The notes: generated from the sequence alone by a model not told the origin. A stretch of DNA of 64,000 bases from Patescibacteria group bacterium (GCA_035528155.1 DATKZA010000121.1:26554-90553), one strand, 5' to 3'. Positions 22,456-58,838 are shown, numbered from the stretch's first letter. Translations and numbers: made by a program.

Positions 22456-22540
22456 TGCCGAAGGGGGGACTCGAACCCCCGCAAGCGTAAAGCTCACCAG
22501 TACCTGAAACTGGCGTGTCTACCAATTCCACCACTTCGGC
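22456..22540 (-). tRNA. tRNA-Leu (anticodon CAG), type II long variable arm; CCA not encoded
   Basis: GCCGAAGTGGTGGAATTGGTAGACACGCCAGTTTCAGGTACTGGTGAGCTTTACGCTTGCGGGGGTTCGAGTCCCCCTTCGGCA folds as a cloverleaf; anticodon stem CCAGT/ACTGG with loop TTCAGGT. Confidence 0.85.
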
Positions 22541-39613: not shown

Positions 39614-40207
39614 TCAACCTCCTATGGGTATGCTGATGAGTGTTTCCAGAGAGCGCCACAGCTTTTTTCCGGCCCGCATCAGGTCGAAGCCGTAGCCGCT
39701 GACCCGCCACTGCATGACCAGCAGGCGCAACGAGCCCATGACCATGGTGAACAAATGCTCGGCCGGAAGGTCGCGTATCTTTTTTTGCTGCTTGCCGTTG
39801 CGGATGGTCGTGAGCAGCAGGCGGCGGTGGCTGCCCAGCACCTGGTGTATCTTGGCTGCAAGTTGCGGATCGTTCTGGAACAGGTTCTCGGCGAACATGA
39901 CCGTGGCCAGAACGGGATCACCGGCAAAGGTGCGGCAACGGTCGAGGAAAAACAGTTTGACCTTGTCCAGGCTTTCACAGTCGCAGGCGTTGATCCGGGC
40001 GAGCAGCTGCGCCGAACTGCGGGCAAAAAGGTCGATGATGGTACTCAGGATCTGCGCCTTGTTCTGAAAATGGCGGTATACCGCCGCGCCGCTGAAGCCT
40101 ACCCGGGCGGCGATGTTCTCGATGGTCAGCGCCTCCAGTCCCTGGTCGCTGATGATGTCCAGGGCGGCGGCGATGATCTCTTTCTGTCTGGCCGTGATTC
40201 CGTTCAT
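39614..40207 (-). CDS. TetR/AcrR-family transcriptional regulator (ATG at 40207 with AGGAAG RBS; alternative GTG at 40213)
   Basis: N-terminal HTH TARQKEIIAAALDIISDQGLEALTIENIAARVGFSGAAVYRHFQNK. Confidence 0.8.
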   Translation of the reverse strand: MNGITARQKEIIAAALDIISDQGLEALTIENIAARVGFSGAAVYRHFQNKAQILSTIIDLFARSSAQLLARINACDCESLDKVKLFFLDRCRTFAGDPVLATVMFAENLFQNDPQLAAKIHQVLGSHRRLLLTTIRNGKQQKKIRDLPAEHLFTMVMGSLRLLVMQWRVSGYGFDLMRAGKKLWRSLETLISIPIGG

Positions 40208-40218
40208 GCTCACTTCCT

Positions 40219-40238
40219 GTTAGTTAACAATCACTAAC
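40219..40238. promoter_or_regulatory. Inverted repeat GTTAGT-N8-ACTAAC immediately upstream of the TetR gene (candidate operator)
   Basis: gttagttaacaatcactaac is a perfect 6-bp-arm palindrome placed over the TetR RBS/5' region. Confidence 0.3.
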
Positions 40239-40400
40239 ATAACCATTATAGTATCAATTAAATGTTTTGTCAACTTTCATCTCAATTTTTATCTCCCCGG
40301 GCGGTTGACAGGGAAAAGTCCCTGTGTTACTACTGGGCCTTGCAGCGGATTCCCGGAAGTTTTTCCGTTCCGGACCCCTTGGCAAAGCCGGATCAATGCC

Positions 40401-41126
40401 ATGAAGCAGATGAACGTGGAACCTTGTTTGCGCCCTGGGCATGAGCAATACCCTTGGAGATTTTTTTTCGGCTACCTGGCCGCGGCCATCCTGTTCCGCT
40501 ACCTTTGCCACAGTCTGATGCTGATCCCGGTCCTGCTCAACGAATTGCGTCCGGCCCCCACCGTTCCCGACCTGCTCCTGTCCCTGGTGCCGCGCCTGGA
40601 CTGGCTGGCCCACATCAATTATTACCTCTGGATCGCCTGTTATTTCCCGCCCGCCCTGTACCTGCTCTACCGCGACCGCAAGCTTTTCGCCCGTTTTATC
40701 ATCCTGGACGGGATCATTTCCCTGAGCCGCGGTTTGATGATCCCGCTGACAGGCCTGGGCCCGCCGCATGGCGTCGACCTTAACGCCCTGCGCCCCTTTT
40801 CCTTGTGGACGACCTGGTGGCAGCTGGTCAATCCTTTCCGCGCCCTGATCGGTGACACGGCCGGGGTCTACCTTACCAAGGACATGTTCTTTTCCGGACA
40901 CATCGCCACCACGTTCCTGCTGTATTTGTTCGCGCGCCGGCTGGGGAAAAAGGAATCCCGGGCATTCCTGGTTCTGCAGATCTTTTCGCTGCTGGTGGTT
41001 TTCTTTTCGCACCTGCATTACACCATCGATGTCATCGGCGCCTATGCCATTACCTTCACCGTCTTCACCCTGGGCAACCGCTGGCTATGCCGAAACTTCC
41101 CCCGCTTCAACTGCCAGGGCTTTTGA
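40401..41126 (+). CDS. PAP2_C-like polytopic membrane protein (phosphatase/phosphotransferase superfamily)
   Basis: Six predicted TM helices; FFSGHIATT (SGH) and SHLHYTIDVIGAY (H..D) motifs resemble the PAP2_C / sphingomyelin-synthase-like catalytic core. Confidence 0.5.
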   Translation: MKQMNVEPCLRPGHEQYPWRFFFGYLAAAILFRYLCHSLMLIPVLLNELRPAPTVPDLLLSLVPRLDWLAHINYYLWIACYFPPALYLLYRDRKLFARFIILDGIISLSRGLMIPLTGLGPPHGVDLNALRPFSLWTTWWQLVNPFRALIGDTAGVYLTKDMFFSGHIATTFLLYLFARRLGKKESRAFLVLQIFSLLVVFFSHLHYTIDVIGAYAITFTVFTLGNRWLCRNFPRFNCQGF

Positions 41127-41172
41127 CAAAAAAAACCGCTTTATTTACAATCAAATAATAAAGGAGGGTCAT

Positions 41173-42456
41173 ATGGGTGTTTATCTATCCAAACGTGCCG
41201 ATTACGTAAAACTGTACCTGGCTTTGTGGCTGGTCGCTTTCATTGGTTTGTGGGTGAATTTATTTCGTGAATTCAGCGAACCGTTCCGGGTCACTACCAT
41301 TTCCTATTTCCTGGTGTACCTGGGGGCCTTGACCGGCGCCTATTTTATTTTGGCGCCGCTTTTCAAAAATCGGGCCATCACATTTGAAAAAAGCAAATGG
41401 CTGCCGTTCATGCCGGCCTTGCTCCTGCTCCTGCATTGGCTGTTCCAGCAAATGGACCTGATGTTCGCCCCGGGCGGACGCTTGGACTATTTTTCCTTCA
41501 ACATCCTGGTAAGCCCGCTGTTCGTCCTCTTCCTGTTTTTGGGCCTGCTGCTTTACCTGCTGGCCGCTCAACCGCAGATCATGGACGCCGTGTTCGTCGG
41601 CATGAAAAACTCGCTTCGTCTTTTTGTATCCATTGCTTTCCTGGCCCTGGGGCTGATCAGCCTGGCCCAGATCATTCAGGCCTTCTCCGCCCTGGTCAAG
41701 ATCGGCACCAGCAGCAACGCCTGGGGTAATTATTCGCGCCTGGGCGTGTTTTCAAGCGGCGGGCTGCTTGTGGCCCTGTTGCTCAACCTGGTCTTGATGC
41801 TGGTCCCGCTCTGCGGCTGGGTGCTGCTGCAGAAGCTGCTTGGCAAAGCAACGCCCAAGTGGGACAAAGTACTCAAACTGCCCTCGCGCTGGTTGGGCGC
41901 CCTGCCCCTGATCCTTATCGGCCTGGCCGTTCTGGCTCAACCCGAGACATTTTATCAACCCTGGTTCATCATCACGGCCATTTTTTCATTTGTCGCCATT
42001 CTGGTCAATTTCCTGGCTGCCAGCCAGAATCCTGTTGCCGTCGGCATCGTCAAGCTGGCCGAATCGTTCTTTTTCTATCCCTACCGCTATTTCCGCAAGA
42101 TCGTCGCCTACGGCAAGAATGACCTGGAAGTGACCGAGAACGAAAACGCGGGAATCGATTATTTTTGCTACACCATCAAGGGTTTTATCTGCATTGCCAT
42201 CCTGGTTTTCTGGATCCTGTTGGCTGTTTATCCCATCCTCAAATACTATGGGCTGAATTTCCTCACTTTGCCGCTGCAGCTCGATTTTTTCCCGATTGAC
42301 AATTTTCACGGCCTGCTCATCTACCCGCTGGCTTTTTTCATCTTCGTGCCCATATACGCCCTGCTCATCACTATTTTCTATGAAGTACTGACTACGCTGC
42401 TGCAGATCCTGGTCAAGATCAACAAATTCTTCAGTAAGCTGCTGGACAAGAAATAA
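41173..42456 (+). CDS. Hypothetical polytopic integral membrane protein (427 aa, at least 10 TM helices)
   Basis: AAGGAGGG RBS 5 nt upstream; strongly hydrophobic throughout; lower GC than the flanks; no recognisable family. Confidence 0.5.
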   Translation: MGVYLSKRADYVKLYLALWLVAFIGLWVNLFREFSEPFRVTTISYFLVYLGALTGAYFILAPLFKNRAITFEKSKWLPFMPALLLLLHWLFQQMDLMFAPGGRLDYFSFNILVSPLFVLFLFLGLLLYLLAAQPQIMDAVFVGMKNSLRLFVSIAFLALGLISLAQIIQAFSALVKIGTSSNAWGNYSRLGVFSSGGLLVALLLNLVLMLVPLCGWVLLQKLLGKATPKWDKVLKLPSRWLGALPLILIGLAVLAQPETFYQPWFIITAIFSFVAILVNFLAASQNPVAVGIVKLAESFFFYPYRYFRKIVAYGKNDLEVTENENAGIDYFCYTIKGFICIAILVFWILLAVYPILKYYGLNFLTLPLQLDFFPIDNFHGLLIYPLAFFIFVPIYALLITIFYEVLTTLLQILVKINKFFSKLLDKK

Positions 42457-42520
42457 TTTAAATTGATTCGGGAATGTGTGTAGGGGTTCAATATGAGATC
42501 AAGCAGATTGGTTTGAGCCC

Positions 42521-43312
42521 CTACTTTTTTTGAGCCAGTTCGACCTTAAGCCAGATCTTGCGCTCGGTTTTGAAATTTTCGCGGGGTATGCCGCGGCCGG
42601 GGGCCGGGCGCGAACGGTCCAGATCCGTTTTAGCCAAACCGGGCAAGGGCTCGATTTTCCATAGCAGGCCGATGCCAAGGGCTTTGCCGGGATTGTGGTT
42701 CAGTCCCGGCCACTCAGCCAAAGCCTGGAAGGGAATGCGCCACTGGTAGGCGAAATCGCCCCAATCGGCGGCCAGGCGTACGGCCGGTCCCAAAGAACCG
42801 TCGGCGCTGATGAAGGTTTCTTTGCCGCTTTTGCGGTTCACTATTTTCAATAGCGTTGCCGCGCTGGCGAGCGGGCGGGGCGCTGGCGGTGCGGCCGCTG
42901 CCCCGGCAAGGTTTTTTTGTTCGGCAGGCCGCGCTTCCGGCCCCGGAATTTTTCGCCGCTCCTGATCACTGACATGGACCAAGCCGAGGTTTTGGGCTTT
43001 GCCGCCGTTTGCGTCCAGCCACAGGGTCAGACGGGCGCGGCTGGGAGGCCGCTGGCGGTGGCTGATATCGGGTGAGAAAAAAATATACAGGAAACGCTCG
43101 TCATTTCCCACTCCGACCATCATGCCGTTGTCGAACAGATGGCTGGTGATCCTGTTGCTGAAATCGGCCATCCGGCCGTCGGAACCGGTCGGAACGGCCA
43201 GCCACTGTCCAGGGATATTCTGCAGGCTGCGGCAGCCCTGCTGGGTGAAAACAAACGCCGATGCGGCGAGGATAAAAAGCGTCGAGCGCATAAGCGACTT
43301 GTACCATCTCAT
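42521..43312 (-). CDS. Hypothetical lipoprotein (start MRWYK at 43312 with AGGAGG RBS)
   Basis: Signal peptide ending ...FVFTQQGC; Pro/Ala-rich linker; no recognisable domain. Confidence 0.45.
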   Translation of the reverse strand: MRWYKSLMRSTLFILAASAFVFTQQGCRSLQNIPGQWLAVPTGSDGRMADFSNRITSHLFDNGMMVGVGNDERFLYIFFSPDISHRQRPPSRARLTLWLDANGGKAQNLGLVHVSDQERRKIPGPEARPAEQKNLAGAAAAPPAPRPLASAATLLKIVNRKSGKETFISADGSLGPAVRLAADWGDFAYQWRIPFQALAEWPGLNHNPGKALGIGLLWKIEPLPGLAKTDLDRSRPAPGRGIPRENFKTERKIWLKVELAQKK

Positions 43313-43465: not shown

Positions 43466-45172
43466 CTATTTTCCTCCAGTGTCCGCGGCCCCGGCTTGGG
43501 ATTTTTTTTTTGCCCATGACAGGGCGACCGTCAGAAAAAGGAGTTCCGCGACGACAAACGCCAGCAAGCCCCTGGCCGCCCCGGAAGTGAAACCGTAAGC
43601 GTGCAAGCCCACGCCGAGCAGGTTGACGCCGAACCAGGCCATGACCACAGTGATGATCGCCACGATGCTGCCGGCAGCCATGCCGAGTTGGCCGATCCAG
43701 CCGGCCAGGCGGGCGTGAAACAGGATGGCGCACCAGATGATGATCAGCAGGGCGCCGTTTTCCTTGGGATCCCAGCCCCAGAACCGGCCCCAGGACTGGT
43801 CGGCCCAGATGCCGCCCATCACCGTGCCGATACTCGTGAGCGTCAGGCCGAAAGCCAGGGCGGCGTACATGGAGCGGGCCGTGCCTGCCGCCGCCGGGGA
43901 GCGCGGGTCAAGCAGTTCCTGGACGAGGACCACGTGGCCGATGATGCCGGCGACCACGCAGCCGGCGTAGCCGAGTGAAATGGTCACCACGTGGGTGGCC
44001 AGCCAAAGATTGGAATCAAGCACGGCCGCCAGCATGCCCATGGTGTCGCCGTCCAGGCTGTAGCGGCCGGCAATGACCAGGAAAATCAGGCCGCTGATCG
44101 CCCCGGTCAGGATGCCCAGCGGCTGTTTTTGCCACCAGGCCATAAGCAAACCCATGGCCGCTCCGGCCCAGGCGACGAAAATAAAGGTTTCGTAGAGGTT
44201 GGTCACCGGCGGCCGGTTCATGATCAGCATGCGGGCCGCCAGGCCGAACGTATGGAACAGAAAGCCGAGAAGCAGGCACAGCCAACCCCAGCGATCGAGA
44301 TGGGTGCGGGAGAGCGCCAGGGAAAAAATGAGCAGCAGCAGTGCCAGCACATAGATCAGTTCCGCTTTGAAAAAAGGGTCCAGGCGGTTGTAAAAAACTT
44401 CCAGGGAGAGCTTGCCGGGGGTGATGGCGCCAGGCGGCAGCCTGTTGCGCACCGACCGGCTGAAGGAGTCCAGAGCGCATTTGAAATCACTTCCGTCAGC
44501 CTGCACATAGGCCTGGGCGGCCTGGGCCAGGAGGGAAATTTCCCGCTGCATGGCCGCCGGCAGGGAAGAGCCGCGGGCAAAGGCCTGGGCGGGACCGAGC
44601 CACTGTTCGTCAGGAGAACCGGCAAGCGGCAGCAGGGCCGGCAGCGGCGGGGCGCGACGCGGATCGCCGGACGCCGTTTCTCCGGGCCGGGCAAAGTGAA
44701 ACGCGTGCAACAGGCTGTTGAAAGCGGAAACATTGTAAAAAAGACGGATGATCTCGTTTTCGACCCGGCCGCCGCTAGCTTCATCCTGTTCCGTGTAGCG
44801 GAATGCCAGCTCGTGCAGCCTGGCCAGGCCGGGGCGCAGCTGCGCATAACTGAAGCGGCCGCGGCCGTCTCCTTCCATGCCCAGTGCGGCCAGCACGTCG
44901 GGCTGGTTGATAAGAAACAGCTTGTCTTCCAGTGTTTCATCGGGGACGAAGAGGACGCGCGCCAGCCAGGCGCAAGCGTCCATGCCGTTCAGGGTGGAAC
45001 GTCCGGAGAACTGCTTGAGCAGGTTGCGGGCGTACGTGTCCAGCGGCTTTTTTCGCCCCTGCTCCAGCACCGCCAGGCGCCGGAACGGTTCCAGCGGGAA
45101 AGGGGCGGCCGCCCGGGCTTCATGACCCGCGAGCCAGCAGGCCAGCATGGCAAGAACGATGATCTTCTTCAT
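43466..45172 (-). CDS. ccsA: Cytochrome c biogenesis protein CcsA/ResC (system II) with a ~300-aa N-terminal periplasmic extension
   Basis: WWD heme-handling domain WGRFWGWDPKENGALLIIIW and conserved His residues in flanking TM helices. Confidence 0.8.
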   Translation of the reverse strand: MKKIIVLAMLACWLAGHEARAAAPFPLEPFRRLAVLEQGRKKPLDTYARNLLKQFSGRSTLNGMDACAWLARVLFVPDETLEDKLFLINQPDVLAALGMEGDGRGRFSYAQLRPGLARLHELAFRYTEQDEASGGRVENEIIRLFYNVSAFNSLLHAFHFARPGETASGDPRRAPPLPALLPLAGSPDEQWLGPAQAFARGSSLPAAMQREISLLAQAAQAYVQADGSDFKCALDSFSRSVRNRLPPGAITPGKLSLEVFYNRLDPFFKAELIYVLALLLLIFSLALSRTHLDRWGWLCLLLGFLFHTFGLAARMLIMNRPPVTNLYETFIFVAWAGAAMGLLMAWWQKQPLGILTGAISGLIFLVIAGRYSLDGDTMGMLAAVLDSNLWLATHVVTISLGYAGCVVAGIIGHVVLVQELLDPRSPAAAGTARSMYAALAFGLTLTSIGTVMGGIWADQSWGRFWGWDPKENGALLIIIWCAILFHARLAGWIGQLGMAAGSIVAIITVVMAWFGVNLLGVGLHAYGFTSGAARGLLAFVVAELLFLTVALSWAKKKSQAGAADTGGK

Positions 45173-45972
45173 GGCCGCACCCGGCCGGGGCGAGTTTTTT
45201 TTAGCGCGGCGGCCATCATGGCCAGGAAATGACCGGCCAGCCCCAGGAAGAGCAGGGCGCTGGCGATATAGGGCAGCCAGCGTCCCGAGTTGCGCACCAC
45301 CGAGAATGTGGAACTCTCTCTCCCCATGCCGTCTTCCGCGTACGATGACTGGTAGAAAGTGTAATCGCGGTAGCGCAGCGGCCGGTTCATGGAAATAACC
45401 GCCCGGCGGCTGGTGTTTCCTGATACGATCTCGACCCGGCTGGAAAAACTCCTGGGGATGCCGCTGCCCGGATGCATGGTCTTTTCGAAATCGAGCAGCT
45501 TGATCTCGATCGGCAAAAAGACCTCTTCCGGGGGTGGGGCGGGCAGGGTCTCCTCCGCTCCGACGCGGACGGCGACATGGCTGCTTTCTCCTTCGCGCAA
45601 GGTGAGGAAATATTCCTGCGCCGTGACCGCGATGAAAAAACCTCCGCTTAAAAACAGCAGCAGGCCGTAGTGGACCAGAAGCAGGCCGGCCTGGCGCCAG
45701 CGGTATTGCAGGCGAAAAATGACGGCCGCCAGCAGGTTGATGAAAAGGAGGATGCTGATGAGCAGCAGGCCCGGCAAGGGGACGATCCCGAAAAGCCAGA
45801 TGATCCAGGCGCCGAAAATTTCACGCTGGGCGGCGTAGACGCCGTTTCCAGCCTGGTAGACGGTGCCGGCAATGACCAGCAGGCCCAGCAGAAGGAGGGA
45901 AACGACCGTCAGTTTCAGGGAGGCCAGGGAACGGCCGAGCGCATGCAAGCGCTGGACCCTTCTCTCATTCAT
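45169..45972 (-). CDS. ccsB: Cytochrome c biogenesis protein CcsB/ResB-like (short form)
   Basis: N-terminal TM region plus conserved RYRDYTFYQSSY block and C-terminal TM with His; overlaps the ccsA start. Confidence 0.65.
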   Translation of the reverse strand: MNERRVQRLHALGRSLASLKLTVVSLLLLGLLVIAGTVYQAGNGVYAAQREIFGAWIIWLFGIVPLPGLLLISILLFINLLAAVIFRLQYRWRQAGLLLVHYGLLLFLSGGFFIAVTAQEYFLTLREGESSHVAVRVGAEETLPAPPPEEVFLPIEIKLLDFEKTMHPGSGIPRSFSSRVEIVSGNTSRRAVISMNRPLRYRDYTFYQSSYAEDGMGRESSTFSVVRNSGRWLPYIASALLFLGLAGHFLAMMAAALKKTRPGRVRP

Positions 45973-46057: not shown

Positions 46058-48157
46058 TCATTGCCGCGTCGTCTGCCCCCTTTTCTCCAGCTCGCGGACG
46101 ATGGCCAGGTTTCTCCTGGCGTTGGCGTCGGTGCCGTCCAGGGCCAGGGCGGCGAGGAATTCGCGCTTGGCACCCTCGCGGTCCCCCAGCTGCAGCAGGG
46201 CGATGCCCAGGTTGTTGTGGGCGCTGGGCAGGAACCGCCCGGCGGCGATGACCTGGCGCAGCGGTCCGACGGCCATGTCCGGGTAGCCGCAAGTGACATA
46301 GGCGGCCCCGAGATCGTTCAGCAGGGCGGGGTCGTCGGGAGCGGCGCGCAGCTGCTCCAGGATGCTGCCCAGCAGCGGATAACGGGCGGCGGCCGCCCGC
46401 TGGCGGAGAAGGCCGCGGGCGAAATTTTTGCCCCACAGGGCCGGCTCGTTTTCCGGCTCCACGCGCAGCACCTGCTCGAAGTGGCGGATGGCTTTTTCCA
46501 GTTCGCCCGTCCGGCCATACAGGTCCCCCAGGTGCAGGTGCGCCTTGACGTCGTCGGGATAGCGCTCCAGGATGCGCAGGAAGCAGCGGCTGGCTTCCTG
46601 CGGCCTCTGCTCCTGCTCATAGAGCACGCCCAGGTTGCCGTTGACCTCGGGGTTGAGCGGGTCGATCTCGGCCGCTTTCAGCAGCCATCCCTTGGCCGCC
46701 ACCGCATTTCCTTCGTTCAGCAGCTGGGTGCCCAGGTTGTAGTAGGAGTCGATGCTGAAATCGCGGCTCATCGGCCCGACCCGCCAGTTGCAGAACAGCA
46801 GCAGCGCCGAAAATCCGGCCAGTGGCAGGAGCGCCTGCCGCCAGTGCTGCTGCCGCAGAAGGCTCCACAGCGTCAGCGTCCCGTAGGCTGCAAAGGCGGC
46901 CAGAAAGGGCAGGATATTCAGGCGGTAGCGGCCGGTGACAAAGAAAGCCAGCAGCACGGCCACGTGGACCAGGATGAAAGCCAGCAGCAGTCCCGCCCCG
47001 GGGACGCGGCGTCGCAGCGCCAGGGCCATGCCCAGCAGCGCCAGCGGCAGGAGCAGTCCGAAGGGGAAGGCCAGCCATTTTTTCCAGACCAGCAGGGAGA
47101 GGAGCGGCGAGTATTGCCGGAAGGGGTAGATGTCCTGGTCGCGCATGATCTCGTTGCCGTTGGCGAACAGGCATAACTTTTTAAGCAGCAGGCGGGCATA
47201 GCCCGCCGGGTCGGCGGCGATGAGTCCCAGGGCCTTGTCCATGAAGTAGGCGGACTGCCCGCCGGCCTTGTGAATGCCGAGGCGGATCGGCTCGTTCAGC
47301 AGCCGGTCCCACTCGTATCCCGGCCGGATGGCGAGCTTGCGTTCGTAGTCACTGCCGGTGCTGAGATAGAAATTGATGCCGGCATTGGTGCTGACGGGGA
47401 CGAATTCGCCCCCGACCCGCCAGTTGCGCCAGGTGACGGGGGCGATGGCCAGCAGCAATCCGCCGCAGAAGGCGCAGCCGAGCAGCAGGCCGCGACGCAG
47501 CCCGGGCCGGCCGGGTTGGCCGCGCCAGCGTCTCCAGGCGTACAGCGGCAGGACGAGGGCCAGGGGCAGGATCACCGACATGGCCAGCGCCGACAGTCCG
47601 AGCAGGACGCCGCAGAGGCCGGCCCGCGCCAGGGTGGGCTTTTCCAGCACGGCGAGGAGGGCCCGGGCGAGGAGCAGGTTGAGGAACACGATCAGCACCG
47701 GGGCCAGGAGGTCCCCTTCATAAAAGATCATCGGACCGTACAGGGAGAAGATCATCGCCGCGGCGAACCCCACGCGGCGGTCGAACAGCCGACTGGCCAA
47801 TCCGTAAAGCAGCCAGGCGCTGGCTGTGCCCGCAGCCATCTGCAACAGGCGCACCAGCAGGAGGTCGCGGCCGAACAGGGCGTAGATCAACCCCAGAAAA
47901 TAGGGATACAGCGGCGGCTGGAAGAACGGTGCGGGGATGGGTACTTCGCCGGCGGCGATGCGCACGGCCATTTCGTCATAAGTCTGGGCGTCGACGACGG
48001 GGTGGTTGAAGAAGGGATTGGCGGCGATCTGCTGGAGATAGACGAGACGGACGGCCAGGGAGAGGGCCAGCAGGATCAAGATGGAACGGAGCGAGGCCCG
48101 GTCTTGGGGCGGCTTCCCCGGGGCGGGGCTTTCAGGCTTCGCTTTGCGTTTGTCCAT
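46058..48157 (-). CDS. GT39/ArnT-like membrane glycosyltransferase domain fused to C-terminal TPR repeats
   Basis: About 12 N-terminal TM helices with PMT/ArnT-like loops; C-terminus shows several 34-aa TPR units (AAKGWLLKAAEIDPLNPEVNGNLGVLYEQ...). Confidence 0.65.
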   Translation of the reverse strand: MDKRKAKPESPAPGKPPQDRASLRSILILLALSLAVRLVYLQQIAANPFFNHPVVDAQTYDEMAVRIAAGEVPIPAPFFQPPLYPYFLGLIYALFGRDLLLVRLLQMAAGTASAWLLYGLASRLFDRRVGFAAAMIFSLYGPMIFYEGDLLAPVLIVFLNLLLARALLAVLEKPTLARAGLCGVLLGLSALAMSVILPLALVLPLYAWRRWRGQPGRPGLRRGLLLGCAFCGGLLLAIAPVTWRNWRVGGEFVPVSTNAGINFYLSTGSDYERKLAIRPGYEWDRLLNEPIRLGIHKAGGQSAYFMDKALGLIAADPAGYARLLLKKLCLFANGNEIMRDQDIYPFRQYSPLLSLLVWKKWLAFPFGLLLPLALLGMALALRRRVPGAGLLLAFILVHVAVLLAFFVTGRYRLNILPFLAAFAAYGTLTLWSLLRQQHWRQALLPLAGFSALLLFCNWRVGPMSRDFSIDSYYNLGTQLLNEGNAVAAKGWLLKAAEIDPLNPEVNGNLGVLYEQEQRPQEASRCFLRILERYPDDVKAHLHLGDLYGRTGELEKAIRHFEQVLRVEPENEPALWGKNFARGLLRQRAAAARYPLLGSILEQLRAAPDDPALLNDLGAAYVTCGYPDMAVGPLRQVIAAGRFLPSAHNNLGIALLQLGDREGAKREFLAALALDGTDANARRNLAIVRELEKRGQTTRQ

Positions 48158-48292: not shown

Positions 48293-51200
48293 CTAGAAAG
48301 CGAACTTGATGCCCAGCGTGGCTTCCAGGGGGGGCAGGAAGCGGTAGCCCATGCCGAAGCGCGGGTCGAGCTGCTCCACTCTGGACTTGACGTCGACGCC
48401 ATCCAGGAGGTCCTGGTCGCTGATAAAGACGTCATCTCTGTTGTAAAAGCTGAGCAGGCGCTGCGCCGTCTTGGCGTCGGTCACGTTGCGGACGTTGAGT
48501 GAGAATTCCAGGTTGTTCTTGCCCAGTTTCAGCGCGTACTCGGCGTAGAAGTCGGCGGTGACGGTGAAGGGGGAGCGCAGGCCGGTGTCGAAGCGGTTGT
48601 AGGGGTAGTAGCCCTGCTGGCCGTTCACCTGGATCTCGGTCGACAGCGGCTGGCCGGAGTAGGCATTCACCACGCCGCCCAGGGTCACGCCAAAGGGGAA
48701 AACGTAGGAGGCATAGGCCTTGAGGTAGTGGGGGCGGTCGGTGTTCATCTTGCCGGCGATCGGCTTCATGTACTGGTCGTAGGAAGTCATCCACAGGTCG
48801 AAGTAGCGGTTGACGTTGGGATCGTTGCGCTCAGCCTCGTCGGAGCTGTTCAGGCCGGCGTAGTTGCCGGTCAGCTGGCTCCAGGTGTAGGAGAGGCCGC
48901 CGAGCCAGTTGTCGCTGAAGCGCTTTTCCAGGGAGAGGTTGACGGCATAGTAGTCGCGGGTGGCCTTCTGCGGAGCAGGGATCCCGGCGGGCAGAATGCC
49001 GTTCGAAATGGCGATATCGTACTGGTTCTTCACGTAGTCGCTGCCGGGATTGGCGATGAAATAGGTCTCGCCCTCGGGCATCAGGATGCCGATGTCATCG
49101 ATCGCCCACAGCAGCTTCTTGTTGACCAGGCGCACAGAAAGGGACAGGTCGTCGTTGATCTTCTTTTCCAGGCCGAAGGAAATTTCGCGCTGGGACATGG
49201 GCTTCATGTCGGGGTCGGTCTCGTTGATCGAGGGGATGCGCCAGTTCTTGTTGCCCAGGTACAGGCCGGGGAAATTGCCGTTGACGCCGATCTGGTCCCA
49301 GTTGGGGGTATCCAGCTCATAATATTCGCTGATCCAGACAAAGCCGCCGTAGGAGCCTTCGGGCAGGGCGAGCTTCATGCAGTCCTGGAAAATGCCGAAG
49401 GCGCCGAACACCTTCAGGCTGGAGTCGCCGAAGACGTCGTAGATGAAGCCCAGGCGGGGGGCCAGCTTGTCGCCCCAGCCGAAGTCCAGGGGAACGATGT
49501 CCTTGAATTCAGGCAGGGAGCTGAACGCCGGCACCTGTTCCTTTTCGGCGCGCAGCCCGAAGTTGAGGGTCAGCTTGTTGGCGATGGTCCAGGAATCCTG
49601 GAGGTAGAATGCCCAGCGGTTGGACCTGGCCTTGTCGATCATCTGGCCGAAGGGGGTGCGGTTCTCATAGTAGCCGTACTTGCCGAGCCAGCCGGCATCC
49701 ACCGGGCTGCCCGGGATCTGGTTGGGGAAGGCACGGCCGACATAGAGCCTGATAACCGGGACCGGGGAAGTGCCGTTGTAGTCGTCCATGATCTGGTTGT
49801 AGGCAAAGCCGGCCTTCCAGGAGTGCTCGCCGGCCAGGTTCATGAAGTAGTTGACGTCGATGTTGGCGCTGGTGCGCGTGTAGTTGGCCTTCGACAACTT
49901 GTAGAAAAGGCCCCAGGTGTAATTGGACCAGCCGTAATTGCGGACCTTGTCCTCCGGCCAGCCGTAGGCGGCTTCACCGCCCGCATTGTACGTGAAATGC
50001 TGATAGTAGATCCCCGGGGGGTCCATGACCGAGGCGTCGTTCTGGTTGTAGTAGCCGAAGCGGCCGGACACCTGCAGATTGTTGCCGATGGTATAATCCA
50101 GGTTGGCGGAGGTGGACCAGGTCGGGGAGTTCTCGCCCATCTGGTCATAGGTGAAGGTGGAGCTTCCGATCGTCTGCCAGTCGGGGAAGTTGGTATTGGG
50201 GTCATCGCCCGGCAGGCCGCCGCGCCATTGGTTGTTGTTGGCGATGAAGGAGGCCGACAGGCGCATATTCTTGATCGGCTCGGCCGACAGCTTGATCGAG
50301 CCGTTCATCCATGTGTCCTTGCGCTCGTACGAGGTCAGCGGGGCGCCGGCCACTTCGTCGAAGTTGACGTCGCGGTTGGTCTGGCGATACACAGGCAGGA
50401 AGGAGCCGAAGAACCACAGCTTGTCCTTGAGGATGTAGCCGCCCAGGCTGAGGCCGCCCTCCAGGCGTGAGAAATCCTGATTGCTGAAGTTTTCGTAATT
50501 GAAATACTGGGCTACGGTCGGATCGTCCGGCTTCAGGCGCAGCACGTCGCGCATCTTGCCGCGCAGGGCGCTGCCCTGGAAGTAGCCCATGACCTCGCCG
50601 TGGAACTGGTTGCCGCCCGAGCGCGTGACCACGTTGACCACGCCACCCATGGAGCCGCCGAACTCGGCCTGGTAGCCCGAGGCCTTGACCTGCACTTCGT
50701 CGATGAAGTCGAAGGCGGCCTGCATGCGCTGCTGGGCGCCGCGCACTTCGCCGGTCTCCATGCCGTCGACGTAGAAGACGTTCTCGGCGCCGCTGGCGCC
50801 GTCGACCGACAGGCCGCCGGTCATGGGCTCGTTGTAGACGCCGGGGACGGCCGTGACCAGGGTGCTGAAGTCGCGCCCCTTGGGCAGGTTGTTGAAGAGC
50901 TCCTTGGTCAGGGTCATGCCCTTGGCCGTGCTCTTGACGTCGATCAGCGGCATCTCCCCGGTGATGGTGATGACCTCGTTCAGGTTGCCGAGCTTCATCT
51001 CGATCTTCAGGCTGGCGGTCTGCTCGGCGACCAGCGGGATGTTTTCCCGCACCACGGTCTGGAACCCCTCCAGGGTGAACACCAGCTTGTAGGTGCCGGG
51101 CGTTAAATTCAGAAGCCTGAAGGTGCCGTTCTCGTCGGTGACCGCCGTCGCGTTGCCGACCAGCTTGGGGCTGGTGGCTTCGATGCTGACGCCGGGCACC

Positions 51201-51322
51201 AATGAACCGTCTTCAAGTTGTACCGTGCCGAAGATCTTGGCAGTGGTCTGCTGGGCGCTCAGCATTCCCGCGAGCAGGAGCACGCTGAATGCCAGCAGGG
51301 TGAACCTTTTGACAATACTCAT
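48293..51322 (-). CDS. TonB-dependent-like outer-membrane receptor with an N-terminal carboxypeptidase-regulatory-like domain (1009 aa; real start MSIVKRF at 51322)
   Basis: Signal peptide; TAKIFGTVQLEDGSLVPGVSIEATSPKLVGNATAVTDENGTFRL CarboxypepD_reg fold; plug-like region; 22-strand-scale barrel; C-terminal LGIKFAF; AAGGAGGA RBS. Confidence 0.8.
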   Translation of the reverse strand: MSIVKRFTLLAFSVLLLAGMLSAQQTTAKIFGTVQLEDGSLVPGVSIEATSPKLVGNATAVTDENGTFRLLNLTPGTYKLVFTLEGFQTVVRENIPLVAEQTASLKIEMKLGNLNEVITITGEMPLIDVKSTAKGMTLTKELFNNLPKGRDFSTLVTAVPGVYNEPMTGGLSVDGASGAENVFYVDGMETGEVRGAQQRMQAAFDFIDEVQVKASGYQAEFGGSMGGVVNVVTRSGGNQFHGEVMGYFQGSALRGKMRDVLRLKPDDPTVAQYFNYENFSNQDFSRLEGGLSLGGYILKDKLWFFGSFLPVYRQTNRDVNFDEVAGAPLTSYERKDTWMNGSIKLSAEPIKNMRLSASFIANNNQWRGGLPGDDPNTNFPDWQTIGSSTFTYDQMGENSPTWSTSANLDYTIGNNLQVSGRFGYYNQNDASVMDPPGIYYQHFTYNAGGEAAYGWPEDKVRNYGWSNYTWGLFYKLSKANYTRTSANIDVNYFMNLAGEHSWKAGFAYNQIMDDYNGTSPVPVIRLYVGRAFPNQIPGSPVDAGWLGKYGYYENRTPFGQMIDKARSNRWAFYLQDSWTIANKLTLNFGLRAEKEQVPAFSSLPEFKDIVPLDFGWGDKLAPRLGFIYDVFGDSSLKVFGAFGIFQDCMKLALPEGSYGGFVWISEYYELDTPNWDQIGVNGNFPGLYLGNKNWRIPSINETDPDMKPMSQREISFGLEKKINDDLSLSVRLVNKKLLWAIDDIGILMPEGETYFIANPGSDYVKNQYDIAISNGILPAGIPAPQKATRDYYAVNLSLEKRFSDNWLGGLSYTWSQLTGNYAGLNSSDEAERNDPNVNRYFDLWMTSYDQYMKPIAGKMNTDRPHYLKAYASYVFPFGVTLGGVVNAYSGQPLSTEIQVNGQQGYYPYNRFDTGLRSPFTVTADFYAEYALKLGKNNLEFSLNVRNVTDAKTAQRLLSFYNRDDVFISDQDLLDGVDVKSRVEQLDPRFGMGYRFLPPLEATLGIKFAF

Positions 51323-51366
51323 TTTGTTTGTCCTCCTTTTTTTATTTGACAAAACATCCAAGGTGT

Positions 51367-51382
51367 TGCAAGTTCCATGCCA
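51367..51382 (-). promoter_or_regulatory. Sigma-54 (-24/-12) promoter TGGCAT-GGAAC-TTGCA upstream of receptor gene 1
   Basis: Coding strand CTTGGCATGGAACTTGCAACACC; GG-N10-GC spacing exact; about 45 nt upstream of the ATG. Confidence 0.55.
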
Positions 51383-51689
51383 AGGGAAGCGGATGGTTTG
51401 AAAACAGCCTGGGGAATTTTTAGTGAACCTGAAAAACTTGAATGGAAGAGGGTTTGCCAGCCAGGACAGGTCGCGGAGAACATTCACCGCAAAGAGTCTT
51501 TTCTTTTTTATTGCCCCTAAAAAATACAAATTATTAATTTTTATTTCAAAAAACAATTAAAAACTCAATTTATTGAACTGCGGATAAGGACTGGCCGGAA
51601 AAATATTGCGCTGATTGAAAAAAAAACTCCTCAAAAAGCATTGGCCGGGCCTGGTTCAAGAAAAAGCGGGTTTGCCTTTTGCTGCTTTC

Positions 51690-51724: not shown

Positions 51725-53815
51725 ATGATGATCAATTCAGTAAGTGCAGTGAGGCCGATGATGAAAAAATTGCTTGTGGTTTGCAGCGTTCTGATTTTTT
51801 GCTTTTCACTTCATGGCGAATCCGAGAAAGAACTCATAAAAAAACTTCCACCGCCACACCGCGTCTGGCTCACGGAAGAGGTGGTATACATTATTTCCTC
51901 TGTTGAAAAGGAAGTTTTCTTGCAGCTTGAATCCGACCGGGAACGCGACACCTTCATCAGCGCCTTCTGGAAACAGCGCAATCCCACTCCCAACCTGCCG
52001 GAAAACGAATTTAAAAAAGAGCATTACCGCCGCCTGGCCTATGTCAACAACTGGTTCGGCAAGGATTCCCCGGCCCCGGGCTGGCGCACCGACCAGGGCC
52101 GTATCTACATCACCCTGGGTGAAGCGCATTCGATCGAACGTTACGAAAGCGACAACGACCTGGTTCCTACCGTGGTCTGGTTCTACCAGGGCATGGCCGC
52201 CAAGGGACTTCCCGATTCCTTCAACGTGGTTTTTTTCAAGAAGGACGGCATGGGAGAATATGAGCTCTATTCTCCCGTCAAGTACGGTCCCCAAGCCTTG
52301 ATGCGAAACTTCGAGGGCGATGCCACTTCTTATGAGGCGGCCTATTATGCCCTGCTGGATATACAGCCCCAGCTGGCTACCGTCTCTCTCTCACTGATCA
52401 CCGGTGAACCGCTGGGCGTGAATCCCTCCATAGCCTCGGAGCTGCTGATCCGGCAGAAGATCCCTGAAACCCCGCAGCGGAATATCAAGAATATTTACGC
52501 CAGCAATTTCCTCAAGTTCAAAGGGCAGGTCGAGATCGACTACGCCGACAATTTCATGGAGAGCAGTTCCCAACTCAATGTTGTCCGCCACCCATCCGGG
52601 CACTATTTCATCCATTACCTCATCGAACCCAAGCGCCTCTCCTTTGAACAATACAAGGAGAAGTATTACACCACCCTGGAAATTTCCGGCAATATCTCCG
52701 ACCCTTCCGGAAAGATGCTCACCCAGATCTCACGCCGCATTCCCCTTGAATTGAGTGAAAATCAGATGCGCATGGTCAAGGACAAGCTTTTCAGTTTTCA
52801 GGACATGATCCCGGTCATCCCTGGAAGTTATCGCCTCACCATTTTCCTTAAAAACCTTACCACCAAGGAATTCACATCCCTGGAAAAGGATTTTGTCATC
52901 CCCGACCGGGAAAAATTGGCGATCTCGACGCTGCTGCTGGCCAACCGCAAGGCCGCCGCCGCGAGCAGTGTTGTCATCAAACCTTTTATTTTCGACGGCA
53001 GCCACCTTCTACCTTCGCCGCGCAACGATTTTCTCGCGGCCGACAATCTGGAACTCTTTTTTCAACTCCACGGCCTGAGCGGGGACTTGATACGGGCCGG
53101 CTCCCTGGAAATATCCCTTTTCCGCCGCGGCGAAAAAGTTTTCACCAAGGAACGGCTGCTCCGCGATCTTGGCTCTCTGCCCGACGTGCTGGAAACCCTG
53201 CCACTGAAGGGTCAATCCCCTGCTTACTACAATCTCAAGGTGTCCCTGCTTGACCAGAAAAAAAGCGAGATCGCGACCAAAAACGCCGATTTCTACATAA
53301 CGCCGCAACCCTCCCTGCCCCGACCCTGGGTCGTTTCCGTGCCCACAGCTGTCGGCGATTTCAGCGTCTTTCTTAACGAACTTGGACGCCAGTACGTTCA
53401 GAGCGGTGATCTTGATAAGGCCCGGCCCCTTCTGGAATCGGCTTTCCGGCAAAACCCCGACAGCGTCCGCTTCGGCGGCGATTATTGCCAACTGCTGCTG
53501 CAGAAAAAGGAATTCGCCAAGGTCAAGGCCCTGGCCCTGCCCCAGGTCAAGGAAAAATCCCGTTTTGAATTCGCCCTGCCCCTGGGCCATGCCTGCCAGG
53601 GCTTGAACGAATTCAACGACGCCATCGCTTTCTACGCGGACTTCATCACCCATTTCGGGGCCAACATCAATGTCTTCAACCAGATCGGCGAGTGTTATTT
53701 TCAGCTGGGCAATGCGGCGGAAGCCCTGAAGGCCTGGGAAAAATCATTGGAACTCAATCCCAAGCAGCCGCTCATCAGGGAAAAAGTCGCTGGTTTGCAG
53801 AAAACCGCCAAATGA
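51725..53815 (+). CDS. GWxTD-domain protein with C-terminal TPR-like repeats (alternative start MMKKLL at 51758)
   Basis: Signal peptide; FWKQRNPTP...EFKKEHYRRLAYVNNWF...GWRTDQGRIYITLGEA matches the GWxTD domain signature. Confidence 0.75.
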   Translation: MMINSVSAVRPMMKKLLVVCSVLIFCFSLHGESEKELIKKLPPPHRVWLTEEVVYIISSVEKEVFLQLESDRERDTFISAFWKQRNPTPNLPENEFKKEHYRRLAYVNNWFGKDSPAPGWRTDQGRIYITLGEAHSIERYESDNDLVPTVVWFYQGMAAKGLPDSFNVVFFKKDGMGEYELYSPVKYGPQALMRNFEGDATSYEAAYYALLDIQPQLATVSLSLITGEPLGVNPSIASELLIRQKIPETPQRNIKNIYASNFLKFKGQVEIDYADNFMESSSQLNVVRHPSGHYFIHYLIEPKRLSFEQYKEKYYTTLEISGNISDPSGKMLTQISRRIPLELSENQMRMVKDKLFSFQDMIPVIPGSYRLTIFLKNLTTKEFTSLEKDFVIPDREKLAISTLLLANRKAAAASSVVIKPFIFDGSHLLPSPRNDFLAADNLELFFQLHGLSGDLIRAGSLEISLFRRGEKVFTKERLLRDLGSLPDVLETLPLKGQSPAYYNLKVSLLDQKKSEIATKNADFYITPQPSLPRPWVVSVPTAVGDFSVFLNELGRQYVQSGDLDKARPLLESAFRQNPDSVRFGGDYCQLLLQKKEFAKVKALALPQVKEKSRFEFALPLGHACQGLNEFNDAIAFYADFITHFGANINVFNQIGECYFQLGNAAEALKAWEKSLELNPKQPLIREKVAGLQKTAK

Positions 53816-58800: not shown

Positions 58801-58838
58801 CTGATCGCCAGCACAGCGAACCTTTTGGCAAAATTCAT
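55812..58838 (-). CDS. TonB-dependent-like outer-membrane receptor with an N-terminal carboxypeptidase-regulatory-like domain; paralog of 48293-51322
   Basis: MNFAKRFAVLAISLLLCAGLLTAQTSTAKIFGVVQLEDGSLVPGVNVEATSPKLVGKTTAVSDENGTFRL is collinear with receptor 1 along the full length; ends GFKFSF. Confidence 0.8.
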   Translation of the reverse strand: MNFAKRFAVLAISLLLCAGLLTAQTSTAKIFGVVQLEDGSLVPGVNVEATSPKLVGKTTAVSDENGTFRLFNLAPGMYKLVFTLQGFQTVIRDGVQVGLEQTLSIKVSMKLGNIEEMVTITGQVAQIDVKSTVKGMTLTKEVFQTLPKGRNFDSLITAIPGVSNEPMLGGTSIDGASGLENMYYIDGTDVTNIVNGANGQSASFDFVDEVQVKASGYSAEFGGSLGGVINVVTRSGGNEFHGEILGFYSGAALRAPYSQRLDYDKVDVSKAKYYDYVDYIGDNNDSRLEGGFNLGGYLIKDKLWFFGSFLPVYYSNTRTVDYGGGTVKDWKRTENYWNFSGKLTAQPAKNLRVTASLVNSFYNYKGDLNNAFGGNPAPKVSYDEYGYSYPNFSGSFSADFTAGNNFMVSARAGYFKRDQGGILVDPTEPYWRFLTEAPGGYFSTTNRGLPGVPDEYQRSAGFRSASAVPYALKKALNEKMSVNADMTYFLNLGGEHSWKAGVQFVRQGQNYDNSAAFPYILFGWNRDYEAYGTNYGRGTYGYYSARGNVDSGPYGAYYKAYSNRWALYLQDSWTIANRVTINFGVRTEAEYIPSYSSNPDYKDVKAIEWGFGDKLAPRLGFIWDVNGDSSLKVFGSAGLFYDVMKLEMAAGSYGGFLWSSAIYPLNTYKWDEIGMEGWDYGTPLAVFDFRMPSFDTTDPDMKSMSQMEISLGVEKKLREDLAFTARLVNKNLLWAIEDIGILTPDGEMYYTTNPGSDYIKARWAEQKATGSIPQNAPDIPKAKRLYYALNLSLDKRFSNNWMGGISYTWSRLTGNYSGLASGDELGRSNPNVERYFDLWYLAFDREMNKIDGVMPGDRTHYVKLYGSYSLPMGLTFGTVINAMSGIPVSTEYSMDVQGYLPFGRGDLGRTPFFWFANLYAEYNLKLGKNNLNISVNVDNVTNSRTAQRIYQIYNNGGTAPSYEEIANSSTWEIADIELDPLFKKETWFYGDGVRGTPLAVRLGFKFSF

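Follow-up and report, generated by a model that had tools for sequence, protein, structure and literature searches.

A PAP2_C-family enzyme gene, a conserved orphan membrane protein gene and a lipoprotein-like gene beside system II cytochrome c biogenesis genes in an Aminicenantes-type genome

The window analysed here, a stretch of 64,000 nucleotides, originates from an Aminicenantes-type (Acidobacteriota) genome. An earlier note on it had described three consecutive genes, encoding a PAP2_C-like enzyme, a polytopic protein of 427 aa (P427) and a Pro/Ala-rich lipoprotein. All three were present as ORFs where the note had placed them, and the gap between the co-directional genes 1 and 2 was exactly 46 nt, as it had said. 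No gene begins at position 40219, taken there as the start of the interval; this base opens a TetR-type operator palindrome. The neighbours mentioned in the note were recovered with Pfam as CcsA, a ResB-like gene and a PMT_2 + TPR protein. The locus has the following features:

39614-40213, minus strand: TetR-family regulator, 199 aa, with a YsiA/FadR-like C-terminal domain (Pfam TetR_N, E=6e-14; TetR_C_4, E=3e-7)
40219-40238, no strand assigned: TetR-type operator palindrome GTTAGTTA-N4-TCACTAAC, within the tetR leader
40245-40273, minus strand: sigma-70 promoter TTGACA-17-TATAAT from the promoter scan, serving tetR and the downstream Fer4-Hcp block
40305-40333, plus strand: putative promoter-like element for PAP2_C, TTGACA-17-TACTAC, proposed from its conservation in related loci
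40401-41126, plus strand: PAP2_C gene (gene 1), ORF of 241 aa
41123-41151, plus strand: near-consensus sigma-70 promoter of P427, TTGACA-17-TACAAT, from the promoter scan
41162-41167, plus strand: consensus Shine-Dalgarno site AGGAGG of P427, read off the sequence
41173-42456, plus strand: P427 gene (gene 2), ORF of 427 aa
42521-43312, minus strand: lipoprotein gene (gene 3), ORF of 263 aa
43422-43443, minus strand: terminator-like hairpin with T-run, after the CcsA stop codon and ahead of the lipoprotein gene, from the terminator scan
43466-45972, minus strand: system II cytochrome c biogenesis genes CcsA (568 aa) and ResB-like (267 aa), by Pfam
46058-48157, minus strand: PMT_2 (GT-C type) membrane domain fused to TPR repeats (GT39-TPR gene), by Pfam

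CcsA is long (Cytochrom_C_asm, E=1e-22) and the ResB-like gene is short (ResB, E=5e-20). TIGR03144 matched this region with 126.7 bits, under its cutoff. The GT39-TPR gene, 2.7 kb from the trio, matched PMT_2 (E=3e-10) plus TPR families. In a relative of 70% identity, the entire block was preserved, running from NifU, NifS, cupin, Hcp, Fer4 and TetR through PAP2_C and P427 to the lipoprotein, CcsA and ResB. Adjacency is therefore not specific to PAP2_C and P427.

The tetR gene is transcribed divergently from PAP2_C. Its family membership was borne out by an N-terminal TetR helix-turn-helix domain and by a palindromic operator near its own promoter; the NCBIfam model for Bacillus-type FadR gave 53 bits, under cutoff. 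The palindrome matched only once in the window, against a chance expectation of 0.01. Its form GTTAGT-N8-ACTAAC was kept in 10 of the 14 loci containing TetR, with near variants in the remaining four. It lies just downstream of the tetR promoter, which matches the sigma-70 consensus at 12/12 positions and is conserved across loci, and ~67 nt upstream of the PAP2_C -35 box. Control of PAP2_C by TetR was not supported, the single operator copy being placed in the tetR leader.

The assignment of gene 1 to the PAP2_C family held. Its product matched Pfam PF14360 (E=5.2e-11, 43.4 bits, gathering cutoff 27), carries the SGH and HYTID motifs, and aligned over residues 19-223 to human SMSr (PDB 8ijq, E=5e-10). 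Motif D1 was taken as P-L-P-D in the first outward loop and D2 as R-R-x8-Y-x2-R-x6-T in TM3. Motifs D3 (S-G-H-T) and D4 (H-Y-T-x-D-V), which bear the His-His-Asp triad, were reportedly defined by Huitema et al. in 2004. All four motifs and the triad His167/His206/Asp210 are present. P-T-V-P-D57 aligned to the SMSr P-L-P-D; R98, R110 and T117 aligned to the D2 Arg, Arg and Thr, with Leu108 at the aromatic position; and D161-MFF-S165-G166-H167-IA-T170 and H206-Y207-T-I-D210-V aligned to D3 and D4 of human SMSr. Among 26 homologues, D57, R98, R110, D161, S165, G166, H167, T170, H206, Y207 and D210 were invariant. By these motifs, gene 1 is an ordinary full-length SMS/PAP2_C-family lipid phosphotransferase with six predicted TM helices. 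Database annotation already says so, a 100% identical NCBI protein being named 'phosphatase PAP2-related protein'.

The positive-inside rule, together with homology to SMS, predicts a periplasm-facing active site. Following the established SMS mechanism, a donor glycerophospholipid would be attacked at its phosphodiester by a histidine, with loss of diacylglycerol. An acceptor lipid, ceramide-like or a diacylglycerol, would then receive the phospho-head-group on its hydroxyl; with water as acceptor instead, the reaction would resemble that of phospholipase C. No sphingolipid- or ceramide-synthesis genes were seen within the 64-kb window.

Strong ribosome-binding sites had been attributed to both co-directional genes. 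This was right for P427, where AGGAGG stands 5 nt ahead of the ATG and GGAGG was kept in every locus examined; no Shine-Dalgarno motif was seen in the leader of ~65 nt ahead of the PAP2_C start. In the promoter-like element of PAP2_C, the -35 box and TG-TACTA(C/A) were conserved in related loci, and the element fell under the -10 threshold of the promoter scan. RNAalifold on 10 PAP2_C leaders gave -2.4 kcal/mol and six pairs, no sign of structured RNA, and there was no Rfam match there.

The P427 promoter agrees with the consensus at 11/12 positions. It sits in the 46-nt gap, its -35 box containing the PAP2_C stop codon. It was exact in 18 of 20 genome loci, with TTGAAA/TTGAAT-17-TAGAAT in the other two, and was retained in L025, a locus without PAP2_C. 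P427 is probably well expressed, with this predicted promoter of its own. Related loci have gaps of 46-85 nt, except for L047 and L065 with 213-220 nt. The terminator scan found no terminator-like site within 41126-41173. As a putative operon, PAP2_C and P427 share strand, a short gap and lack of a terminator, and not a single promoter. An internal promoter is compatible with co-transcription of the two genes.

P427 has ~10 hydrophobic helices by hydropathy and AF2, in agreement with its earlier description as polytopic. In the predicted topology, 10 TM helices leave both termini inside, and a helical hairpin of ~50 residues (286-336) lies in the cytoplasm. This hairpin is highly conserved, with the motifs YPYRYFRK and VTENENAGIDYFC, and there is almost no extramembrane mass. 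Conserved polar residues (H88, Q93, Q166, Q169, N279, E404) lie inside or at the ends of TM helices.

The earlier note had recognised no family for P427, and it had named membership in a known transporter family as one result that would tell against its proposal. No such family was matched by HMM, profile or fold. Pfam, NCBIfam and PADLOC gave no match, nor did a sequence search of the PDB, and an exhaustive profile search of 1.84 billion representatives returned its own family alone. The 93 homologues, all at least 58% identical, came from Aminicenantes/Acidobacteriota MAGs. A fold search likewise gave no match, which is weak evidence given the moderate quality of the AF2 model (pLDDT 69.8, pTM 0.68, shallow alignment). 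An internal repeat was rejected: the one similarity that hhalign gave, with the N-half set against the C-half and the protein against itself, spanned 19 residues of TM3 and TM7 (E=0.056). Kinship to CcsA, ResB, the GT39 protein, PAP2_C or the second PAP2 protein was rejected as well, with hhalign probabilities below 1%. On sequence grounds, P427 is a true orphan family restricted to Aminicenantes-type bacteria, with no detectable relatives elsewhere.

The AT shift reported for the P427 gene was real in bulk (GC 0.519 vs 0.58-0.67 in the neighbours), yet it is no sign of foreign DNA. The deficit lies at codon positions 1 and 2 (GC2 0.318), whereas GC3 (0.715) falls within the neighbours' range of 0.70-0.87. 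The protein consists of 20% Leu, 10% Phe and 8% Ile, and the low GC is an effect of amino-acid composition. Foreign origin was rejected on the normal GC3 and on an identity across loci of 60-97% that runs parallel to that of the neighbours. The best explanation is that P427 has been vertically inherited under strong constraint. From its general features, the most likely role of P427 would be to translocate or handle a small solute or lipid across the inner membrane; no transporter fold was recovered. We give a probability of roughly one in three to its substrate being part of the PAP2_C reaction.

Gene 3 is lipoprotein-like and Pro/Ala-rich, as had been described. Cys27 is invariant and follows a hydrophobic N-terminus; residues -3 to -1 read Q-Q-G (S-S, P-G or Q-G in relatives) against the canonical L-[AS]-[GA]. 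The protein has long Pro/Ala/Gly-rich inserts, including a Pro/Ala-rich one at residues 121-151. It had no match in Pfam, and its fold is a beta-sandwich superposable on DOMON/CBM9 domains. NxrC and the gamma subunit of ethylbenzene dehydrogenase, both haem-b subunits, were the best fold matches; among 32 homologues, no haem-ligating Met, His or Lys occurred in invariant or ≥90%-conserved columns. Gene 3 probably encodes a DOMON/CBM9-like lipoprotein. It was absent between P427 and CcsA in four loci (L019, L020, L026, L029), and L027 gave no lipoprotein match. It is best explained as a variable, dispensable periplasmic lipoprotein of a sugar-binding, ligand-binding type. Its position ties it, if to anything, to the CcsA side of the locus.

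PAP2_C was the immediate upstream neighbour of P427 in ~46 of 52 related loci (~88%), so the synteny on which the earlier proposal depended does exist. Around the two genes, TetR, Hcp, the lipoprotein, CcsA/ResB and GT39 are present in some loci and absent from others. The trio itself is not a conserved unit: the lipoprotein gene is on the opposite strand and missing from several loci, and PAP2_C is missing from six. P427 occurred without adjacent PAP2_C in at least six contexts (L025, L043, L052, L055, L057, L066), with different neighbours in each; L057 holds the most divergent, deepest-branching member. Conversely, outside the clade (Holophagae and other Acidobacteriota), six loci carried a PAP2_C orthologue amid varied neighbours and without a P427 homologue, and L030 keeps the TetR-Fer4 context of PAP2_C yet lacks P427. 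The enzyme looks autonomous, since standing alone in other Acidobacteriota suggests that it needs no dedicated partner. Candidate partners in other lineages were rejected: a 407-aa protein of L031 does not match P427, and the 232-aa (L031) and 246-aa (L006) proteins downstream of PAP2_C are unrelated to one another.

We lean, at a little under an even chance, towards reading the interval as three separate transcription units, vertically inherited in one Aminicenantes-type Acidobacteriota subclade, and not as one module. P427 would then owe its place beside PAP2_C chiefly to descent, as part of a block whose synteny is general. The earlier suggestion that the enzyme works with a polytopic partner survives in part: a functional pairing is possible and the link plausible, but it is not obligate, and nothing showed head-group transfer onto a glycan. 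Rather unlikely, though to be taken seriously, is a clade-specific two-component lipid system. Here the SMS-like enzyme would transfer the phospho-head-group at the periplasmic leaflet, while P427 would supply or flip the acceptor lipid, or else remove or flip either the product or the diacylglycerol set free; the internal promoter would just raise P427 dosage. The same-strand adjacency despite frequent indels on either side and the terminator-free gap are consistent with such a system. Both proteins are integral to the inner membrane and similarly conserved, and a cluster of polar and aromatic residues invariant in P427 (H88, W89, Q93, Q166, Q169, S172, W184, N186, Y187, Q256, T259) lies at predicted periplasmic helix ends, on the side expected for an SMS-type active site. 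Against such a system stand the contexts in which P427 lacks PAP2_C, including that of its deepest-branching member, the PAP2_C orthologues without P427, P427's own strong conserved promoter, and the synteny of the entire block regardless. A more far-reaching form, in which P427 is a new family and possibly a new fold that arose in the Aminicenantes-type lineage as partner of the SMS-like enzyme for a clade-specific membrane lipid (e.g. flipping the acceptor or product), appears quite improbable to us. Frequent co-directional adjacency without a terminator, also expected of a functional pair, counts against separate units.

We consider it very unlikely that P427 or the lipoprotein, singly or together, serves system II cytochrome c maturation, e.g. 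by handling haem or thiols; P427 would then use the invariant H88 and the pair C332-x7-C340, and the DOMON-like lipoprotein would bind haem. P427 does converge directly on CcsA in the four loci that lack the lipoprotein between them, the lipoprotein gene lies just downstream of CcsA in the same direction and has haem-b subunits as its top fold matches, and the ResB-like gene is unusually short. But P427 and CcsA are on opposite strands, four loci (L011, L012, L022, L023) have no CcsA/ResB within 6 kb, and between CcsA and the lipoprotein gene stands the terminator-like hairpin. The lipoprotein, moreover, has no invariant Met, His or Lys for haem, and P427 has neither a WWD nor a CcdA-type motif and no hhalign similarity to CcsA or ResB. 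Scarcely credible is the single envelope-glycoconjugate module in which the trio and GT39-TPR place a phospho-head-group on a lipid-linked glycan. The nearby PMT_2-type GT-C/TPR protein speaks for it. Its gene, however, belongs to a minority of loci (matched in only 5/21 genome loci, missing from L002/L024, replaced by a sulfatase-TPR gene in L001). Most loci lack GT39-TPR and several lack the lipoprotein; the genes are spread over both strands, with promoters of their own and a terminator-like hairpin dividing units, and no further glycan-synthesis gene was seen in the window. The module as first proposed is weaker than stated, because the trio is not conserved, P427 has its own promoter, and PAP2_C and P427 each occur without the other.

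The two assignable parts of the locus, the SMS-family enzyme and the DOMON/CBM9-like lipoprotein, belong to known kinds. P427 is noteworthy for its 60-97% identity across a whole uncultured clade, its near-consensus promoter and ribosome-binding site, and its lack of any detectable relative among 1.84 billion protein representatives. Conserved, apparently well-expressed orphans of this type are good targets for structural genomics and useful for the envelope biology of Aminicenantes, of which we know no cultured representative. If P427 cooperates with the SMS-like enzyme, this would point to an undescribed bacterial lipid pathway, and as true partners the two would form a head-group-exchange system of two components that is new for bacteria; otherwise the locus is ordinary conserved synteny. 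A literature search returned no paper on bacterial PAP2_C/SMS-like enzymes, characterised bacterial members or Aminicenantes lipids.

Among known systems, P427 resembles MFS, DMT, AEC/PIN, SEDS, Wzy/O-antigen ligase, GT-C, MBOAT and acyltransferase-3 proteins in gross features alone (~10 TM helices, short loops, 427 residues). The lipoprotein shares 6-9% identity with its DOMON/CBM9 relatives (NxrC, ethylbenzene dehydrogenase gamma, Thermotoga CBM9) and differs from them by its probable lipid anchor and long Pro/Ala/Gly-rich inserts. The Met plus Lys/His haem ligands of NxrC, EBDH-gamma and CDH cytochrome domains are not conserved in it.

For gene 1, yeast AUR1 is a member of the same lipid phosphatase/phosphotransferase superfamily. 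Its homologue BT_1522 of Bacteroides thetaiotaomicron is a phosphoinositol-dihydroceramide synthase whose deletion abolishes PI-DHC (PMC9246714). Attachment of a phospho-head-group to a lipid alcohol thus exists in bacteria with experimental support. BT_1522 belongs to the AUR1-like subfamily, not SMS/PAP2_C, and lies in a dedicated inositol-lipid gene cluster in which no P427-like gene is described; gene 1 has no such cluster around it. Plant PDCT/ROD1 (Pfam AtPDCT1_2), a phosphatidylcholine:diacylglycerol cholinephosphotransferase, is PAP2_C-type and uses diacylglycerol, not ceramide, as acceptor. Gene 1 matched AtPDCT1_2 weakly (E=2.4e-4, 21.4 bits, under the Pfam cutoff of 27), and several of its bacterial homologues carry a precomputed PF24788 match. 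PDCT/ROD1 is a functional analogy only, phosphatidylcholine not being expected as a major lipid in the host. Gene 1 is tied to the eukaryotic family of SMS1, SMS2 and SMSr/SAMD8 by its alignment to the six-TM core of SMSr and by motifs D1-D4, whereas it is bacterial, 241 aa long and without a SAM domain. In the absence of ceramide, SMSr converts glycerophospholipids to diacylglycerol by hydrolysis (PMC7988496), and a ceramide-independent reaction therefore has a precedent there.

The genes around PAP2_C, of the SMS (sphingomyelin-synthase) family, and P427, which encodes a 427-aa polytopic membrane protein, were arranged as follows:

39614-40213, minus strand: TetR regulator (ORF listing, DNA reading; Pfam TetR_N)
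40401-41126, plus strand: PAP2_C, 241 aa (Pfam PAP2_C, E=5e-11, exceeding the cutoff)
41173-42456, plus strand: P427, 427 aa (ORF listing, DNA reading)
42521-43312, minus strand: lipoprotein gene, 263 aa (ORF listing, DNA reading)
43466-45172, minus strand: CcsA (Pfam Cytochrom_C_asm)
45169-45972, minus strand: short ResB-like gene (Pfam ResB)
46058-48157, minus strand: PMT_2+TPR protein, here GT39-TPR (Pfam PMT_2 and TPR)

ORF listing and DNA reading showed that the earlier note had described its three genes (PAP2_C, P427 and the lipoprotein gene) largely correctly, and the 46 nt between the first two are exact. P427 and the 263-aa protein had no Pfam match, and NCBIfam and PADLOC yielded nothing further for the three. 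Strong ribosome-binding sites had been reported for both plus-strand genes; P427 has one (AGGAGG, 41162-41167), but no Shine-Dalgarno motif precedes the PAP2_C start. The reported AT shift of P427 is real (GC 0.519 overall), but it is no sign of foreign DNA, which was ruled out as its source by a GC3 of 0.715, within the 0.70-0.87 of the neighbours. The shift is confined to codon positions 1 and 2 (GC2 0.318) and is an effect of amino-acid composition (20% Leu, 10% Phe, 8% Ile).

P427 is an autonomous gene unit and an orphan family; conserved and apparently well expressed, it is the sole noteworthy item of the locus. A word-indexed search retrieved 93 relatives, each at least 58% identical, only from Aminicenantes/Acidobacteriota MAGs or metagenomes, and all named ones were labelled "hypothetical". 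When a profile of 31 members (A1) was run exhaustively with HMMER against 1.84 billion representatives, it gave seven matches, namely a full-length representative of P427's own family and fragments. Against PDB sequences the profile had no match with the E threshold relaxed to 10. The protein is thus, as first described, without recognisable family in Pfam, NCBIfam or PDB sequences, and none of the membrane proteins encoded nearby resembles it.

Hydropathy, the helices of a moderate AlphaFold2 model (pLDDT 69.8, pTM 0.68) and charge distribution all fit a predicted topology in which 10 TM helices keep the N- and C-terminus on the inner side. Residues 286-336 form the largest loop, which is predicted to be cytoplasmic and is the most conserved part of the protein, with the motifs ...FFYPYRYFRKI...VTENENAGIDYFC... 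The polar residues H88, Q93, Q166, Q169, N279 and E404 are invariant and lie inside TM helices or at their ends. The simplest reading of ten TM helices joined by minimal loops, with conserved polar residues inside the membrane, is a protein that would handle or translocate a solute or lipid. An internal repeat was sought and none was detected. TM3 (residues 74-92, window 41392-41448, SKWLPFMPALLLLLHWLFQ) and TM7 (residues 238-256, 41884-41940, SRWLGALPLILIGLAVLAQ) share a weak, non-significant similarity over 19 residues (42% identity, hhalign E=0.056), which could be the trace of an ancient 4-TM duplication.

Promoters were predicted by scanning the window and by comparison with relatives. 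The tetR promoter is a perfect sigma-70 TTGACA-17-TATAAT (12/12 positions, 40273-40245, minus strand). It is directly followed, in the tetR leader, by the palindrome GTTAGTTAACAATCACTAAC (40219-40238), a predicted TetR operator whose 20-bp arrangement GTTAGTTA-N4-TCACTAAC occurs once in the window and is conserved across Aminicenantes loci. The tetR-Fer4(AF_0155)-Hcp-cupin-NifS-NifU block thus looks like an autoregulated, TetR-controlled hybrid-cluster-protein and Fe-S assembly unit. PAP2_C has a conserved TTGACA-17-TACTAC promoter (40305-40333) and, in the window's lineage, a GC-rich leader of ~65 nt (40334-40400) without a Shine-Dalgarno motif; for a nested hairpin in the longer leaders, RNAalifold support was weak (-2.4 kcal/mol). 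In L018, L019, L020, L023 and L024 the PAP2_C ATG lies at most ~10 nt past the -10 box, which suggests a leaderless mRNA. P427 has its own promoter, TTGACA-17-TACAAT (41123-41151), with the PAP2_C stop codon inside the -35 hexamer. Of 20 genome loci, 18 have exactly this sequence and two a near variant, and L025 has kept the promoter although PAP2_C and TetR are deleted. A terminator-like hairpin (43443-43422) lies 3' of CcsA, before the lipoprotein gene. Together these signals argue for PAP2_C, P427 and the lipoprotein gene being three transcription units, with possible read-through from PAP2_C into P427.

Synteny was assessed in 21 species-representative genomes (20 assessable loci) and 37 metagenome loci (32 assessable). 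PAP2_C lay immediately 5' of P427 in 19/20 and 27/32 of these, respectively, as would be expected if P427 were functionally tied to it, a reading that we regard as possible but rather unlikely. In a relative at 70% identity (L002/L024) the NifU-to-ResB block was wholly intact; conserved adjacency is thus not peculiar to PAP2_C and P427. Where PAP2_C was missing, the upstream gene was Fer4 (L025), RhuM/Fic (L052), FecR-like (L055), DUF6599/DUF362 (L057, with the most divergent P427, 60% identity) or a GDSL/SGNH hydrolase (L066); L043 likewise had P427 without PAP2_C. Beside PAP2_C orthologues outside the clade (L006, L007, L030, L031, L032 and one JGI locus) no P427 was found, though L030 retains the TetR-Fer4-cupin context. 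In L030 (3021-5726; PAP2_C 61% identical), PAP2_C begins 4 nt past a 658-aa multihaem cytochrome c/Ni_hydr_CYTB-like gene. TetR was absent from L011, L012, L020 and L025. Identities across loci were 60-97% for P427, 64-96% for PAP2_C, 57-89% for TetR, 54-82% for CcsA and 39-81% for the lipoprotein; P427 is vertically inherited under strong constraint.

A role of P427 in cytochrome c maturation, to which its position near CcsA and the ResB-like gene might point, is improbable; neither gene lay within 6 kb in L011, L012, L022 and L023. The earlier note's interpretation is supported only in part, and we give least credence to its four-gene model, in which the trio acts with GT39-TPR. Its SMS-type enzyme and orphan P427 were borne out, but neither the trio nor the GT39 association is conserved: the lipoprotein gene was absent from the P427-CcsA interval in L019, L020, L026 and L029, no lipoprotein match was found in L027, and GT39-TPR had a match in only 5 of 21 genome loci (L002 lacks it, and L001 has a sulfatase-TPR gene in its place). 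We lean, at slightly under an even chance, towards P427 as an independent neighbour of PAP2_C; the remaining probability belongs to none of these four readings. In L066, the GDSL/SGNH hydrolase gene lies 75 nt 5' of P427 (103-1104 and 1179-1730). In OafA/OatA-type O-acyltransferases, SGNH domains are paired with acyltransferase-3 domains of 10 TM helices, and this single case hints that P427 might serve as the membrane component of an acyl transfer.

Lipoprotein homologues occurred only in the same clade and were variable (38-81% identity), with an invariant Cys27. The AF2 model was a beta-sandwich (pLDDT 72.6; strands mostly 77-93, one block 65). Haem binding seems unlikely because the alignment has no conserved Met, His or Lys; the conserved Asp, Asn, Trp, Tyr and Arg would fit a CBM9-like ligand site. 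The protein is a new member of a known family type.

The adjoining system II pair (43466-45972, minus strand) was unusual. The ResB-like protein has only 267 aa and matches positions 148-269 of the 486 in the Pfam ResB profile, and CcsA (568 aa) has an N-terminal extension of ~300 residues and a TIGR03144 score of 126.7, below the cutoff of 187.6; ResB functions may be redistributed between the two genes. Further downstream, two large CarboxypepD_reg-type TonB-dependent-receptor-like outer-membrane proteins alternate with two GWxTD-domain proteins, one also carrying TPR repeats (48293-51556, 51725-53815, 55812-58838, 60243-61241); in L002 the first receptor-like protein and a GWxTD-TPR protein again lie downstream of ResB. 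The window also encodes a 675-aa fusion of a Ser/Thr protein kinase domain and an FGE-sulfatase (formylglycine-generating-enzyme-like) domain (14006-16033). It encodes LpxB as well (17821-18945), which means that lipid A is made by the organism. Public labels on the L009, L020, L024 and L029 MAGs and on the window's NCBI proteins read Chrysiogenales, 'uncultured Clostridia' or 'Patescibacteria group'. These are probably binning or taxonomy errors, since Aminicenantes contigs match every gene of the locus.

The window has a second PAP2-type gene, which encodes a classical phosphatase (22722-23603, 293 aa, PF01569 E=3e-19); a tRNA gene (22456-22540, minus strand) lies ~200 nt away. PAP2_C itself is an SMS-family enzyme that stands alone in other lineages, with homologues of 50-60% identity in Holophaga, Mesoterricola and other Acidobacteriota. 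Its residues 19-223 align to the six-TM core of PDB 8ijq, the human sphingomyelin-synthase-related protein (E=5e-10), and none of the four SMS motifs is missing. Across 26 aligned homologues (lowest identity 47%), D57, R98, R110, D161, S165, G166, H167, T170, H206, Y207 and D210 were invariant. Active sites of PAP2-type enzymes generally face the periplasm. Arg/Lys-rich segments lie in the TM2/3 and TM4/5 loops and at both termini, which by the positive-inside rule would place the His-His-Asp site on that side. PAP2_C is a new member of its family and already publicly annotated as such: NCBI holds a 100% identical protein named "phosphatase PAP2-related protein", and near relatives are called "sphingomyelin synthase family protein". 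By analogy, we infer a periplasm-facing transfer of a phospho-head-group or a phospholipase-C-like hydrolysis. A precedent is the ceramide-independent activity of SMSr (PMC7988496), and a bacterial precedent for such chemistry is the AUR1-like PI-DHC synthase BT_1522 (PMC9246714).
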